Positions 58,892 to 63,099 of a DNA stretch of 64,000 nt are shown one piece after another. The position numbers were made by a program, and so were the translations under genes. The notes below the pieces were generated by a model. The model searched no databases. It worked only from the letters and a program-made list of their open reading frames with translations, and was not told the DNA's origin. Every line of letters starts with the position of its first letter. Positions within the stretch are counted from its first letter, which is position 1. Origin of the DNA: Verrucomicrobiota bacterium (GTDB lineage: Bacteria > Verrucomicrobiota > Verrucomicrobiia > Limisphaerales > UBA1319); contig JAKLFB010000013.1 of assembly GCA_022711435.1 (NCBI GenBank), positions 74,041 through 138,040 of the forward strand, written 5' to 3'.

Positions 58892-61800
58892 TCACCAATC
58901 GCAGAGGGACTCGACGCAGGCGGCGGAGCCGTCGCGGAGCCAGCCATCGAGCTGGGCGGGGTCTTTGAGCTGCTGGCCGCGCTCGCGGGGGACGAGGAGG
59001 AACCGGCAATCGACCTCGGGGAGGGCGGTCATATCGCTCCAGAGCTTCTCGAACTGGGCGACGGGGAAGACGTCTTCCTGGCCATGGCCCCATCGTTTTT
59101 TGACCTCCTTGAGCGTGATGTAAGTGGGGATGCGCTGGCCGATCTGGCGGATGGCGGCGGTGATTTTGTCGGTGTGGTCGAGGTCATCCCGGGTTAGGCC
59201 GAAGGCGGCGAGCAAGCGGTCGAGGTCGATCCAGGTGGTCATGGTGTTGTAATAGCTGAGGCGGAACTCATCCTCTTCGCGGGGGAGGGCGAGTCCCTCG
59301 ACGAGGCGGGGCCGGCCATTGACGCGGGCGAGGCCGCCCCCGCGGTCTTCGAGGCGGCGATGGATGACCTCGAACGTGAGGCAGGCATGGGAGTGGATAT
59401 GGAGGCCGAGGAGGGCGGGATCGAGCGAGGCGCCGACGGTATCGATGTTGTGGAGGAGGAGGTATTGGAGCCGGGGCTGGCGGGCGAGCATGTCGCGGAG
59501 GGCGCCGTTGCGGAGGAGGTTGGGCACCTCGTAGAAATGGCCGACGGGATGGAGGCACTGGTGGGGGAGGTTGTCGGCATAGTCGTTGCCCTCGCCGGTT
59601 TGGCGGGCCCAGTTGACGAGGGCGGCGCGGAGTCCATCCCGGACCTTTTGGGCCTGGGCATCGAGCATTTGCTGGGGCATCTCCTCCCAGGCGAATCGGA
59701 GGTCGCGGACCATGGGGATGAGGCGGAGGCCGACGGCGCGGCCGGGCGACAGGCGCAGCGGGCCGGGGTAGCCGAAGGAGGCATTTCGCTCGAGGTATTG
59801 CTGTATGGGATCGTGGGAGAGGTAGCTGGTGGTGATGAAATGGGGGGGCGGATTGCCATGGAGGCGGCCGGTGCGGCGGCTTTTGGCGAGATGGACCTCG
59901 AGGAAGGAGCGGTGGCGGCCGCCGAGTTTGGCGAACGGATGGAGGGCTTTGACGACGCCGGCCCCCTGGGTCCACCGGCTGCCTGCGCCGGCGGCGAGCG
60001 TGACCACGGCGGCGCGGCCTTCCTCGAGCGCCTGGCGGCCGATGGCGACGATGTCCGCCGCAGGCGCACGGCCGCCATCCATGAGATCGTCGGGGGAGGC
60101 ATCGGCGATGGTGGTGCTGGTGGGGAGCCGGTTTTGGGCGAGACCGATTCGGGCGCTGCGCAGGTCGGCGCGGATCTGCTCGTGGAGGACGGGGTCGAAG
60201 CCGTGGCGTTCGAGTTTCTGGGGCAGGCTCTCGGAGGATGAATCCTGGGTGCGGCTCTGGGGGAAGAGGCGGTCGAAGAGAGCCTGGACCATGCCGCCCA
60301 GGTCGGGCCGGGTGCGGCAGAGCGCGCCCAATCGATCCAGCTCGATCCTGCGGAGGCGGGGGATTCGATGGGGTTCGGTGCGCAGCAAAGCGGGGACGGT
60401 GAGCTCGTAATAACCGGCCGGCAGGAGGGCGTGGTCGTTCTCCATGAGATCGGCGAGGGTGCCGTGGTCGTTGACGGCGAAGTCGTAGACGACGGGATCG
60501 ATGGCGAAGGGCAGGGCGGTTTCGAGCTGGGATTTAGTTTGGGCCATGATCTCGGCCAGGCGCTGCTGGGCGGCGGCGCGGCTGTCGGGATGGAAGAGGA
60601 AGCCCATGCCGCCGCCGGACATGCCGCCCAGCATCCAGAAGCCCCAGAATCGGTCCTGGAATTCGGATTGGACGCGCTGGATGAGGGTTTCGGTGTAGAG
60701 GTTGGATGCCCAGGGGATGATGGACTGGATGGGGCCGAAGAAATTGCGGGTGGTGGCGGCGCCGATGGAGTGGAGGTCGGACTGGCGCAGGGCCTCGAGC
60801 ATATGGTCGAGGAGCGCGATGGCCTCCTGGCGGGCCTGCCATTCGGCGGCGGCGCGGAGGAGGTATTTCTCGGTGACCATCTCGAGGATGGGCCCGACGT
60901 TTTGGGCGAGCCCGCCGTGGACGAGGATGAGGCTGTCCTGGAGGCGCTGGCGGGCGAGGGGCGGGGCGGACTGGTCATCGAGGATGCGGTGGCCGGGCAG
61001 GAGGCGTCCGCGGCTGATGCCGTATTCGGGGTCGCCTTGGCGGGCGAGCTCGCCCTGGATGAGCTTGAAGGCGGGCCAGACGCCGCCCGAGTCCTGCCAG
61101 CCGCCGCCGGAGCCGCCGAGCCATTCGCCCAGGATGGCGCGAGCGGCGACGAGGCGGCGTTCGGATTCGAGCAAGGGGCCGGTGAGCGCGTGGGTCTGGC
61201 CGGTGGCGCGCATGCAGACGGCGATGAGAGCGGCGAGGAGCGTGGTGGAGACGGCGAGGCGGGAGCCTTTGGGGATGTTGCGGACGCGGCTGACGATCTC
61301 GATTCCGCAGCCTTGGCCGGCGAGGCGGGCGAGGAGCTCGGCGAGGTTTTGGCCGGAGCCTTCGAGCCCGGGGGGGACGAGGCCGGAGGCGATGACGGCG
61401 GCTTTGAGGAGGCCGAGGTAATCGCGGGCGAAATCGAACAGCTCGGGCAGGTCGGCGACATCGATCGATGCCCCCAGATCGACGCTGGTGAGGCGGAGGA
61501 CGGGTTCGGAGATGACGCGCAGATAGGCCTCGACGGGCGGCTGGGGACGCGGATCGCGGCCGTGGATGGCGAGGTCGATCGAGATGTTCAGGACTCGAGC
61601 GCCTTCGGGGTAATCCATTCCCAGGAAGAAGATATCGCTCCAGCCGCTGTGGGAGAGGTCCATGCGAACGGGGGTGCGTTCGCGGAGGACGGGGAAGAGG
61701 CCGCTTTGGGGGGAGGGAGTGCGGAGCTGGGGGTGGATGCGGAGGGGGTGGTCGTGGGGATGGCCGGTGCGGAACATCCATTGGTTTCCGCGGACGGAGC

Positions 61801-62212
61801 GGACGGAGCGGCGGACCTGGTTGGCGAGGGTCTGGAATCCGAGGCTATGGTAGGCCATGGCGAGGGCGCTGCTGAGGGCGCCGCTGGGGCCCTGGCGGGC
61901 TTGGGCGGCCAGGAAGAGCTCGATGGCCTCTTCGAAGCGCCGGTGGAGGATGTGTTCATAGCCTTCGAAGGGGATGAGGCCCTGGCCGGGGATGCCGGCT
62001 TTGGAGGGGAGGTGGAAGCGGTGGATGGCGTAGAGGAAGAAGAGGGCGCGGACCTGTTCGTAGAGGTTGTCGGCGGTTCGGCGGAACTGCTCGAGGCCGG
62101 CGCATTCGGACTGGAGGGCGGCGGCGGTGGCGGCCTGGCCGAGGCGATCCAGCGATTGGTTGCGGACGGCGGGATCGGTGCTGGTGATGATGCGGACGAG
62201 CTGGCAGGTCAT
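58892..62212 (-). CDS. Large fusion protein (about 1106 aa): a ~200-aa N-terminal region of unknown function, then a GHMP sugar kinase domain, then a C-terminal UDPGP-family (UAP/USP/UGP-type) sugar-1-phosphate nucleotidyltransferase domain.
   Basis: The GHMP motifs are [20 protein letters not shown] and [15 protein letters not shown]. The UDPGP motifs are [15 protein letters not shown] and [12 protein letters not shown]. The start was set at MTCQLVRI (Met169 of the track ORF). The upstream 168 codons are low-complexity and overlap the GalU-like gene. Confidence 0.65.
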
Positions 62213-63099
62213 GGTCGGGAATCGGGGGCGTGAGAGGCCGGGGCAGGGAGGGAGGCATGGCGGAGAGCGAGGATCTCGACGAGCTGAGCGAGGATCTCGG
62301 ATCGGTCGCGGCCTTCGAGGCCGAGCGCCAGCTGGGCGACGAGGAGGCCGTAGGGGAGGCCGATATCGTAGCGGCGGCCGCGGATTTCGTGGGCCAGGTA
62401 TTGCTCCTGGCGGCTGAGCTCGGCCAGGGCGGGGGCGAGCTGGATGGGGGGTGCGGGTGGCGGGCGGGATTGGATGAGTCGTTCGAGCAGTTCCATGACG
62501 GCGGCGGTCAATACATGCATGCCGAAGAAGCAGAGATAATGGCCATGGCGCAGGCCGGGCACGATGAGGCTCTGCTCGGCCTGGGTGGGGGTGGGTTTTT
62601 CGAGGACGGTCTCGATGGCGTAGAGGCCGGCGGAGCTGGGGAGCAGGCGGCCGCCGACGGCGCCATAATAGGGGAGCTTGCTTTCGTGGGTGGCCTGGAC
62701 GGCGGAGACGGCGCACTGGTGCTGGCGGGCGACATCGATCAACTGCTGGGCGCAGTTGCGGCGTTCGTGGCTGACGTAGAGGTGGTCGCCGACGAGGAGC
62801 AGGAAGGGGTCATGTCCGACGAAGTGGCGGGCGCAGTGGACGGCGTGGCCGAAGCCGAGGGGGGGGTCCTGGGTGATGAAGCGGAGGCGGCCGGCGTGGG
62901 CGCCGGCGGCAGCGGCGAAGGAATCCTCCTGGCGGGGAGGCAGGATGAGCGCGATCTGGTCGATACCGGCTGCGAGGACCTCTTCGATGATGATCCGGAG
63001 GGCGGTCTTGGATTCGCCGTCCCTGTCGACCAAAGTCTGGAGGGGGAGGGTTTGCTGGTTGCGGCCGGCGGCGGTCACGATGGCTTTCTTGATTTCCAC
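62209..63099 (-). CDS. GalU-like sugar-1-phosphate nucleotidyltransferase paralogue with a degenerate G-loop ([10 protein letters not shown] instead of AGLGTRFLP).
   Basis: It shows the GalU fold blocks KAIVTAAG...[17 protein letters not shown]..., LGFGHAV and LLLVGDHLY. The stop overlaps the start of the downstream fusion gene (ATGA). GTG and TTG starts near 63099 are alternatives. Confidence 0.6.

Follow-up and report, generated by a model that had tools for sequence, protein, structure and literature searches.

A conserved two-gene unit encoding a fucokinase-like GHMP kinase domain fused to a UDPGP-type nucleotidyltransferase domain, and a GalU-like partner

All glycan synthesis runs on nucleotide sugars as its currency, and one-polypeptide enzymes are valued for chemo-enzymatic synthesis. 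To our knowledge, enzymes that take a sugar to its NDP-sugar on one polypeptide are few: FKP, HldE and a glucuronokinase fusion of fish. A two-gene unit in a Verrucomicrobiota bacterium raises the question of whether there is a further solution of this kind, and what a GalU-like protein is doing beside it. The unit lies in a window of 64,000 nucleotides, by which we mean the whole stretch of DNA analysed (from contig JAKLFB010000013.1). The original prediction, made from the letters of the window, was that a single polypeptide combines a GHMP sugar kinase with a UDPGP-family nucleotidyltransferase, and domain searches agree, with the kinase part being fucokinase-like.

Both genes are on the minus strand. 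The GalU-like partner gene (63099..62209, 296 aa) runs from a GTG start at 63099 to a TGA stop at 62209, and is followed by the large gene (62212..58892, 1106 aa), whose start codon overlaps the partner stop codon as ATGA (62209..62212). This overlap had been proposed earlier and can be read directly off the sequence; it is a predicted point of translational coupling between the two genes, and most orthologous loci have a short or negative intergenic gap. The open reading frame that contains the large gene (58892..62716, minus strand) is open over 1274 codons, but the conserved protein begins at the ATG at 62212, and its start and length are shared by P0001, a database protein 96% identical to the large protein. 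The 168 extra arginine- and proline-rich codons are another frame of the partner gene, and the long N-terminal extension is therefore an artefact, just as had been suspected. Scans of the operon's surroundings for a promoter, terminator or regulatory RNA gave nothing above chance.

Could the fusion itself be an artefact, with an assembly error or frameshift uniting two genes? A few database entries (P0170 and P0223) do resemble frameshifted chimeras. These had been candidates for partner-plus-enzyme fusions, but their matches are patchy and they look like frameshifted assemblies, so they were kept out of the evidence. Against an artefact, a frameshift or stop was looked for near the domain junction and is absent, the frame is continuous, and the same architecture of about 1100 aa, identical in length, recurs in thousands of database proteins from independent assemblies, some with contigs of several Mb. 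The probability of a mis-joined pair of genes is therefore negligible. Full-length homologues of constant length (~1106 aa) and roughly 66-71% identity are found in at least 586 species genomes from about ten phyla, among them Verrucomicrobiota, Chloroflexota, Planctomycetota, Acidobacteriota and Armatimonadota. Proteins of different phyla average 63-69% identity and those of one phylum about 71%; Chloroflexota and Verrucomicrobiota proteins, for example, share about 67% identity across 1106 residues. In one relative, P0233, the protein is circularly permuted, such that the UDPGP domain comes first, followed by the N-terminal region and the kinase, indicating that the two halves are retained together as a functional pair. 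Judged by this sequence record, the fusion is real and under selection. Both NCBI and JGI label the two genes as UTP--glucose-1-phosphate uridylyltransferase, and full-text literature searches found no paper on the family and no description of its architecture. The "novel-looking" of the original prediction therefore needs qualifying: the family is very widespread, unusually conserved and abundant in databases under that name, yet it seems to be unstudied.

The kinase domain (aa ~171-565; 60518..61702, minus strand) resembles the fucokinase of FKP by sequence and by fold, and the two-lobed GHMP fold is present. In sequence searches fucokinase is much the nearer match, at E 7e-23 as against E 2e-5 for heptokinases. 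In Bacteroides fragilis FKP, Asp762 and Arg592 are catalytic, and Trp599, Asp601 and Gln761 contact fucose (PMC11982464). In our alignment, FKP residues R592, W599, D601, S719, E751, Q761 and D762 correspond to R183, W191, D193, S322, E363, Q373 and D374 of the large protein, located in the elements PVRMD (R183), GWSD (W191, D193), the motif at 314-323 (part of the longer motif 314-329 of the original prediction), GEW (E363) and SGGGWQD (Q373, D374), whereas FKP Thr602 aligns with Ile194. R183, D193, S322, Q373 and D374 are invariant even among relatives only 29-58% identical. The GHMP phosphate loop (motif II, P-x-x-x-G-L-x-S-S-A in the superfamily) is non-canonical, a point absent from the original prediction: it reads G-S-R-L-A-V-S-T versus the canonical G-S-G-L-G-S-S, with Gly715 replaced by Arg318 and Gly717 by Ala320. 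The loop keeps the proline, the leucine and the magnesium-contacting serine (S322), and is invariant in 46 homologues. Given this deviation from P-x-G-S-G-L-G-S-S, ATP as the phosphate donor is an assumption. The glycine-rich loop of motif III (compare G-A-G-G-G-G) lies at aa 528-538, the motif of the original prediction being 529-538, and is invariant in the window's clade. The Pfam GHMP_kinases_N score is under threshold. The NCBIfam model for L-fucokinase/FKP (NF009948) scores 81 bits against a cut-off of 721, with the match limited to model positions 610-951; this and the absence of an N-terminal GFPP domain indicate that the large protein is not an FKP.

Following a linker (aa ~566-700; 60113..60517) in which the model shows two strands and then helices, and in which one homologue (P0055) tolerates an insertion the size of a transposase, is the UDPGP-type (UGPase/UAP/USP) domain (aa ~701-1106 plus the stop codon; 58892..60112). 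That the C-terminal region is a nucleotidyltransferase, as originally claimed, is borne out by a Pfam PF01704 (UDPGP) match of 30.6 bits against a gathering score of 22, aligned over profile positions 161-280 only, and by a family profile that finds solved UGPases at E 3e-27. The domain has the UDPGP catalytic-domain fold, the nucleotide-binding signature L-x-x-G-x-G-[TS]-x-x-G (within LAAGAGSRW, aa 739-747) and the central N-x-D-x-L-G-A (NIDTVGA, aa 922-928) and D-x-G-G motifs, the latter including DRGGGLA. G742, R746, G750, G891-H892, G958, K1035, Q1053 and E1055 do not vary in either of the two clades of the family described below. The UDPGP motif G-H-G-D is replaced by G-H-F-Y, which makes the sugar pocket different from that of UGPase and USP. 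The protein ends ~20 residues past a VPRxRGQQLKD motif, and from its sequence a C-terminal beta-helix or dimerisation domain seems to be absent.

At the other end of the protein, the N-terminal helical region (aa 1-170; 61703..62212) contains many residues that are invariant among homologues, including a basic stretch at 61769-61816. It has no Pfam or NCBIfam match, and its best hit in a PDB profile search is at E 0.17. Modelled alone with AlphaFold it gave low confidence (pLDDT 61) and no fold match, with Foldseek returning only non-significant helical repeats; in the full-length model, residues 1-130 have a pLDDT of 61-92 per 10-residue block, mostly 77-92.

The partner (62209..63099, 100% identical to the called NCBI protein P0278) is a GalU-derived protein of the nucleotidyltransferase fold, with Pfam NTP_transferase and NCBIfam GalU matches at E 6e-27 and a PDB profile search that finds YngB/GalU at E 1e-33. 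However, its NCBIfam score is far under the family cut-off (TIGR01099, 94.9 bits versus 326.8, with only residues 71-253 aligned). The GalU signature G-x-G-T-R followed by L-P-x-T-K-x-x-P-K-E-M-L is not matched, as the second glycine, the threonine and both lysines are gone, and the lysine-rich segment PATKAxPKEMLP has been swapped for other sequence. In the window the remodelled N-terminal loop reads AAGRNQQ (aa 10-16; 63052-63072), and the original prediction was correct that the phosphate-binding arginine is lost here. The family usually keeps it: in an alignment of 73 sequences (72 orthologues and the window's own) the consensus loop is G-[RK]-x-Q-R, the last position is arginine in 65, and the glutamine of the window is a minority state. 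R16 is replaced by Q, H or N in 8 of the 73, the window included, and the magnesium-binding D245 gives way to N, P, A or T in 12, so that one or both are altered in 15 (14 orthologues and the window's own). Meanwhile Q77 (which contacts uracil), D105, E167 and K168 (the catalytic lysine of VEKP) are invariant, as are Q15, P19 and G28 of the rebuilt loop, with L20, Q21, D25 and D27 nearly so. Drift at two canonical catalytic positions while ligand-binding positions stay fixed favours a ligand-binding accessory subunit, and lends support to the earlier suggestion of a regulatory or non-catalytic partner. The strong conservation of the rebuilt loop could equally mean a new catalytic activity.

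Among loci with room for it, the partner gene immediately precedes the large gene in 73 of 79 from genomes and 70 of 79 from metagenomes (143 of 158). Nothing else travels with the pair. All-against-all clustering of open reading frames from 85 loci yielded clusters for the large gene and the partner and, beyond these, shadow ORFs only, and no phosphatase gene is encoded in the operon. Linkage to the epimerase (GME) gene at 46.5 kb, which the original prediction marked for checking, was not seen; that gene is separated from the pair by 12 kb containing leuA, valS, rlmN and a glucan phosphorylase.

The domain identities, the intact catalytic residues, the conserved fusion and gene pair and the lack of other conserved neighbours are what the sequences show; both enzyme activities, the nature of the sugar and nucleotide, any channelling between the two sites and any physical contact with the partner are inferred. 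Our preferred reading, to which we give about an even chance, is of a conserved operon whose large protein would make a nucleotide sugar in two steps for free-sugar salvage. The fucokinase-like GHMP domain would phosphorylate C1 of the sugar using ATP, and the UDPGP domain would then use UTP, or a related NTP, to turn the sugar-1-phosphate into the NDP-sugar, with release of pyrophosphate. For the window's clade we take the substrate to be a free, probably neutral sugar of fucose or galactose configuration, salvaged as in FKP. The GalU-derived partner, which appears to retain the residues that hold uridine and sugar phosphate while its triphosphate/pyrophosphate loop is rebuilt, would most likely serve the large enzyme as a subunit for ligand sensing or scaffolding, and would not be a second pyrophosphorylase. 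One feature that the salvage reading leaves unexplained is the identity of ~67% between phyla, which is unusually high for a salvage enzyme.

Salvage is favoured for the window's clade, but it is not the sole reading, because of the company kept by a rare sister clade (clade B) with 29-37% identity, the same architecture and no partner gene. There, P0143 is fused to a ROK kinase and an IMPase/CysQ-type phosphatase, P0159 and L092 are ROK fusions, P0148 is followed by a ROK gene, and upstream of P0175 are genes for a GmhA-like SIS protein and a HAD hydrolase of the beta-PGM family; FBPase_2 and NUDIX genes are near P0233. The sister-clade context comes from seven loci, and a metagenome scan aimed at that clade gave 79 clade-A loci and one clade-B locus. 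GDP-glycero-manno-heptose synthesis (GmhA, HddA, GmhB, HddC) and HldE follow a bisphosphate logic, and these associations raise a similar, heptose-like de novo route as a rival to salvage: the GHMP domain would phosphorylate C1 of a hexose-6-phosphate or heptose-7-phosphate, as HddA/WcbL do, a separate phosphatase would strip the distal phosphate, and the UDPGP domain would then form the UDP-sugar. ROK kinases, IMPase-, HAD- and FBPase-type phosphatases and a GmhA-like isomerase fit a sugar-phosphate substrate better than a free sugar. Nevertheless, none of these companions recurs near the window's clade (85 + 79 loci), the operon is without a phosphatase, and the sugar site differs, in that W191 is found in the window's clade, as in fucokinase, and is missing in the sister clade, where motifs II (G-S-G-L-A-V-S-T) and III differ too. 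Together with the greater proximity to fucokinase than to heptokinases, this makes the bisphosphate route rather unlikely here. A related alternative, which we consider unlikely, addresses the conservation that salvage leaves aside: the pair could be the non-salvage core of an undescribed, self-contained UDP-sugar route, with a GHMP domain that produces a sugar-1,n-bisphosphate or accepts a donor other than ATP by way of its arginine-bearing loop, a UDPGP domain that makes an uncatalogued UDP-sugar (UDP-alpha-heptose or another unusual sugar, for example), and the GalU-derived protein as a dedicated product sensor controlling a non-homologous enzyme. If so, the near-ribosomal conservation would reflect an essential multi-subunit machine needed by many soil and water phyla.

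The partner could instead be an active nucleotidyltransferase with a new specificity, for another NTP, NDP or phosphate acceptor, implying that the operon makes two activated sugars or that the partner performs the physiological nucleotidyl transfer. The invariant K168, D105, E167 and Q77 are compatible with this, and the rebuilt loop is conserved and not decayed, with Arg16 in 89% of sequences. Yet canonical catalysis is not expected to tolerate the changes at Arg16 and Asp245 or the replacement of the lysine-rich segment, and the sister clade works without any partner, so we regard an active partner as doubtful. Very improbable is that the large protein is an ordinary UDP-glucose pyrophosphorylase in which the kinase-like and N-terminal parts are regulatory pseudo-enzyme domains. 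The NCBI and JGI names, detection by Pfam of the UDPGP domain alone and the non-canonical motif II are in keeping with such a protein, but the names were transferred automatically on the strength of a partial Pfam match, every catalytic and sugar-contact residue of FKP is retained, without variation in distant relatives, which a pseudo-kinase would not require, and G-H-F-Y stands in place of the G-H-G-D of UGPases.

With its two predicted activities, the family would be a fourth, architecturally distinct one-polypeptide solution, present in hundreds of species and annotated only as UDP-glucose pyrophosphorylase. Identifying the sugar would correct thousands of annotations and supply a ready-made bifunctional catalyst, and might bring to light a new salvage route or activated sugar in soil and freshwater bacteria that are abundant and poorly cultured.

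How does this enzyme compare with known systems? The original analogy to FKP, with opposite domain order and a different pyrophosphorylase family, is upheld on both counts by domain and fold comparison. FKP of Bacteroides fragilis and Arabidopsis (PDB 5yys, 9iip, 9iit) has L-fucokinase on one chain with GDP-L-fucose pyrophosphorylase, but its pyrophosphorylase comes first, pairs a GalU/RmlA-like fold with a beta-helix and works with GTP, whereas in the large protein the kinase comes first and the pyrophosphorylase is a eukaryote-type UDPGP domain. Unlike FKP, the large protein also has the extra 170-aa N-terminal region, the GSRLAVST phosphate loop and a near-constant GalU-like neighbour. Enzymes of the PF01704 family are rare in bacteria. 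UDP-sugar pyrophosphorylase, UGPase-A and UAP share the fold and signature (L-x-x-G-x-G-[ST]-R; N-x-D-x-L-G-A; D-x-G-G), and in plants and trypanosomatids they follow the same logic of an anomeric kinase and then a UDPGP enzyme, with kinases that are separate proteins and not fused as here; they differ from the large protein in having G-H-G-D for G-H-F-Y and a C-terminal beta-helix/dimerisation domain that the latter seems to lack. Zebrafish DrGKUP, a natural fusion of glucuronokinase and putative UDP-GlcA pyrophosphorylase for salvage (PMC3938481), likewise has a GHMP sugar-1-kinase and a uridylyltransferase on one chain, but with a bacterial-type nucleotidyltransferase of 260 aa at the N-terminus, from a pyrophosphorylase family different from that of the large protein, and the kinase at the C-terminus. 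HldE (RfaE) has the same order of N-terminal kinase and C-terminal nucleotidyltransferase, although its domains are ribokinase-type and cytidylyltransferase-type. HddA, a GHMP anomeric kinase, falls in the same subgroup as our kinase domain, while HddC is GalU/RmlA-type, unlike the UDPGP domain. The NDP-heptose routes place a phosphatase step between the two reactions; such partners are not linked in the window's clade, and GmhA-like, HAD and ROK companions occur in the sister clade. Finally, the partner resembles GalF (with GalU), GMPPA (with GMPPB) and GlgD (with GlgC) in keeping ligand-binding residues, having an altered catalytic loop and being encoded next to its putative target. Those proteins pair with an active paralogue of the same fold, whereas the putative target of the partner is of another family, UDPGP, and carries a fused kinase. 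The partner could be the first pseudo-pyrophosphorylase to regulate an enzyme outside its own family.

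The minus strand of the window contains a reading frame at 58892..62716 that is open for 1274 codons. A conserved start at ATG 62212 delimits the large gene to 58892..62212 (minus strand) and its product to 1106 aa, and the database protein P0001, which is 96% identical, agrees with this call in both start and length. Directly upstream is the partner gene, which runs on the minus strand from GTG 63099 to TGA 62209 (62209..63099) and encodes a GalU-like protein of 296 aa with 100% identity to P0278, a protein called by NCBI. The stop of the partner and the start of the large gene overlap in the sequence ATGA. 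The original prediction had dismissed the R/P-rich extension of the longer frame as an artefact, and indeed its first 168 codons read another frame of the partner gene. The motifs quoted in that prediction were all located in the sequence, confirming the observation.

A word-indexed protein search with the large protein returned at least 8000 candidates, none with an E-value above 1e-5. Of these at least 8000 matches, the top 120 are ~1100-1140 aa in length and 66-71% identical to the large protein, the length exceptions among them being one longer entry and the homologue P0055 (1464 aa). An exhaustive search of representative sequences gave 682 clusters at E <= 1e-30, and in a one-genome-per-species scan at least 586 genomes carry a homologue, including members of the Verrucomicrobiota, Chloroflexota, Planctomycetota, Acidobacteriota, Armatimonadota, Bacteroidota (Rhodothermales), Myxococcota and Lentisphaerota, among others. 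The MAG that contains the window also belongs to the Verrucomicrobiota. That the fusion is an artefact of assembly is vanishingly improbable. Mean identity is ~71% within phyla, pairwise means between phyla range from 63% to 69% across 1106 residues, and 62 of 78 nearest neighbours share the same phylum. These identity levels and nearest neighbours point to inheritance that is mainly vertical and very strongly constrained; for a sugar-salvage enzyme such constraint is out of the ordinary. In databases the protein is labelled either "UTP--glucose-1-phosphate uridylyltransferase" or "hypothetical", and a full-text literature search found no publication on the family. One homologue, P0147 (L089:6001-9909), lies on a 667-kb contig beside a ubiquitin-conjugating-enzyme gene and a gene encoding 5712 aa. 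Because the called gene is not colinear in translation, P0147 is probably a eukaryotic member of the family whose gene has introns.

Pfam reports only a partial UDPGP match in the large protein (aa 886-1001, 30.6 bits with a cut-off of 22), and NCBIfam only the kinase half of its model for FKP, the bifunctional L-fucokinase/GDP-L-fucose pyrophosphorylase (aa 176-559, E 3e-23), far under the equivalog cut-off. With a profile of the kinase domain, FKP is matched at E 7e-23, whereas heptokinases reach no better than 2e-5 to 2e-4. A profile of the C-terminal domain matches UGPases of the eukaryote type at E 3e-27 and, less strongly, UAP and USP. These profile matches confirm both domain assignments. 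The anticipated union of a GHMP kinase and a UDPGP-type domain in one polypeptide is real. An AlphaFold model with 46 homologues as input (pLDDT 73, pTM 0.69) divides the protein into a helical N-terminal region (aa 1-170), an alpha/beta kinase domain (aa ~171-565), a linker (aa ~566-700) and a Rossmann-like C-terminal domain (aa ~701-1106). No relative of the N-terminal 170 aa was detected in Pfam, NCBIfam or PDB-profile searches, and the segment was poorly predicted when modelled in isolation; it probably packs on the kinase domain and is not an independent domain. In P0055, a Y1 (IS200/RAYT-like) transposase domain is inserted in frame within the inter-domain linker, bordered by a repeated peptide (...ASRP.SAPAKLI.GETPG.AGGTPAPLP...), and two Y1 transposase genes, L004:11532-12038 and L085:19465-20019, each adjoin a homologue of the large gene.

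Kinase residues were mapped by alignment to B. fragilis FKP, in which Arg592 and Asp762 are catalytic, Ser719 contacts Mg, and Trp599, Asp601 and Gln761 contact fucose (PMC11982464). The catalytic pair aligns with R183 and D374 of the large protein, Glu751 with E363, Ser719 with S322, and the three fucose contacts with W191, D193 and Q373. R183, D193, S322, Q373 and D374 are invariant down to relatives of 29-58% identity. The phosphate loop is non-canonical, G-S-R-L-A-V-S-T as opposed to G-S-G-L-G-T-S-S in FKP, and shows no variation within clade A, to which the window belongs. The C-terminal signature and further motifs, including YYNTMTTW, align with UGPase motifs, and G742, R746, G750, G891-H892, G958, K1035, Q1053 and E1055 are invariant throughout the family. 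The G-H-G-D of UGPases is G-H-F-Y in the large protein, and therefore the sugar pocket differs. As the VPRxRGQQLKD motif is followed by ~20 residues before the protein ends, the large protein seems to lack the beta-helix found at the C-terminus of UGPases.

Among 79 genome loci with enough flanking sequence, 73 have the partner gene directly upstream. An independent set of 79 metagenome loci has it there in 70 cases, and so does a 46%-identical relative of the large protein. Clustering of ORFs over 85 loci revealed no recurrent neighbour besides the partner, indicating that the unit consists of two genes. Profile searches relate the partner to B. subtilis YngB and GalU enzymes (E 1e-33), with the GalU segment A-G-L-G-T-R-F-L-P-A-T-K-A-x-P-K-E-M-L replaced by one opening A-G-[RK]. 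The phosphate-binding Arg of this loop had been described as lost. In an alignment of 73 sequences (72 orthologues and the window's own) this is true of the window's partner, one of three with Gln, but not of the family, in which 65/73 retain Arg at the G-x-G-T-R position (H in 4/73, N in 1/73). The Mg-binding Asp245 is replaced in 12/73, and deviations at R16 and/or D245 affect 15/73, the window included; a canonical nucleotidyl-transfer enzyme should not tolerate such drift. Q15, P19, G28, Q77, D105, H106, E167 and K168 are invariant across the 73 sequences. Given conserved ligand-contact residues and a loop that is conserved but non-canonical, a binding or regulatory subunit would fit better than a canonical transferase. 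The suggestion of a regulatory or non-catalytic partner is thus favoured by the drift in 15/73 and the invariant ligand contacts.

Directly downstream of the large gene is a xylose-isomerase-like TIM-barrel gene (AP_endonuc_2; 57671-58447, minus strand) with a twin-arginine-like leader. A xylA-like AP_endonuc_2 gene follows a distant homologue (L090:9076-10338), and no recurrence of such a neighbour was seen among 85 clade-A loci. An alpha-glucan family phosphorylase (54104-56242, minus strand; TIGR02094, E 2e-243), an enzyme whose product is glucose-1-phosphate, is situated 2.6 kb downstream of the operon and is not conserved as its neighbour in the clustered ORFs of 85 loci. The gene at 56544-57452 (plus strand) encodes a DUF7901 protein ending in a PEP-CTERM-like sorting tail (VPEPVT...LLGFAAVRRFRG) and falls in a low-GC patch (0.53 at 56-58 kb versus ~0.66 elsewhere). 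Over window 24000-64000, all 2-kb bins have a positive GC skew (0.13-0.29), and cumulative skew climbs steadily across these last 40 kb.

The sister clade B (29-37% identity) retains all four parts of the large protein, although in P0233 a circular permutation puts the UDPGP domain first. Clade B is without W191 and the basic N-terminal stretch, and its motifs, G-S-G-L-A-V-S-T and S-T-G-C-R-G-G-A-G, are unlike those of the window's clade. The partner loop G-[RK]-x-Q-R...DRDG, the basic N-terminal stretch and the phosphate-loop residue R318 occur together in the partner-bearing clade only. Neighbourhoods were read at six clade-B loci, and the partner turned up in none of them; at L092, the Pfam domains of a giant ORF were read. 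ROK sugar-kinase domains are fused to the module in P0143 (2318 aa, together with an IMPase/CysQ-type phosphatase), P0159 (2939 aa) and the L092 ORF (>6178 aa), and a ROK gene follows P0148. Upstream of P0175 come a beta-phosphoglucomutase-family HAD hydrolase and a GmhA-like isomerase, and FBPase_2 and NUDIX genes lie near P0233. In low-GC genomes the module is found within giant multi-enzyme ORFs alongside ROK kinase and IMPase-type domains (L085, L092, P0143). P0159 adjoins a 7976-aa gene at L085, and the single ORF at L092:3-18536 (GC 0.42) has two apparent module copies. One sister-clade locus has, after the module and a ROK gene, a 715-aa protein (L087:4993-7140) with two domains of pyruvate phosphate dikinase, the one that binds the nucleotide and the mobile one with the phospho-histidine; this protein may be an alternative phosphoryl donor system.

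We favour a scheme in which the large protein would phosphorylate a sugar at its anomeric hydroxyl and, in a second step on the same polypeptide, uridylylate the sugar-1-phosphate to yield an NDP-sugar. Because the fucokinase sugar contacts are kept, the substrate in the window's clade would be a free sugar configured like fucose or galactose, and the partner would be non-catalytic and ligand-sensing. Taken whole, with free sugar, two-step synthesis and ligand-sensing partner, the scheme has about an even chance of being right as stated. The general claim of a kinase plus NDP-sugar pyrophosphorylase, leaving the substrate open, is probably correct. That this protein is a plain UGPase with pseudo-kinase domains we regard as very doubtful.

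NDP-heptose is made in four steps by GmhA, the GHMP kinase HddA, the phosphatase GmhB and a nucleotidyltransferase, and the ROK kinase, isomerase and phosphatase companions of clade B recall this route. The resemblance suggests that at least clade B may act on sugar phosphates via a 1,n-bisphosphate. This lead is based on seven loci and need not carry over to the window's clade. As a rival reading of the window's operon, we consider a bisphosphate route rather unlikely. An active partner with a new specificity, compatible with either our favoured scheme or the bisphosphate route, is likewise given a fairly low probability.

The large protein and its partner represent a real, abundant and unstudied family of what is probably a bifunctional nucleotide-sugar enzyme. 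Three puzzling features stand out: how extreme its conservation is, the orphan N-terminal region, and the partner with its remodelled GalU-like sequence. Its working logic would resemble that of FKP, yet it cannot be classed as one: kinase and pyrophosphorylase stand in the opposite order, the pyrophosphorylases belong to different families, and the NCBIfam FKP equivalog threshold is missed widely. The original prediction had proposed this logic, the opposite order and another pyrophosphorylase family, and the sequence bears out the latter two. HldE has domain order and logic in common with the large protein but not the combination of folds. Similarly, the glucuronokinase/pyrophosphorylase fusion of zebrafish follows the same fusion logic with a different fold combination (PMC3938481). 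Plants have an anomeric kinase and USP as a pair, here joined into one chain. Finally, the partner is similar in principle to GalF, GMPPA and GlgD, although unlike these it would target a non-homologous enzyme.
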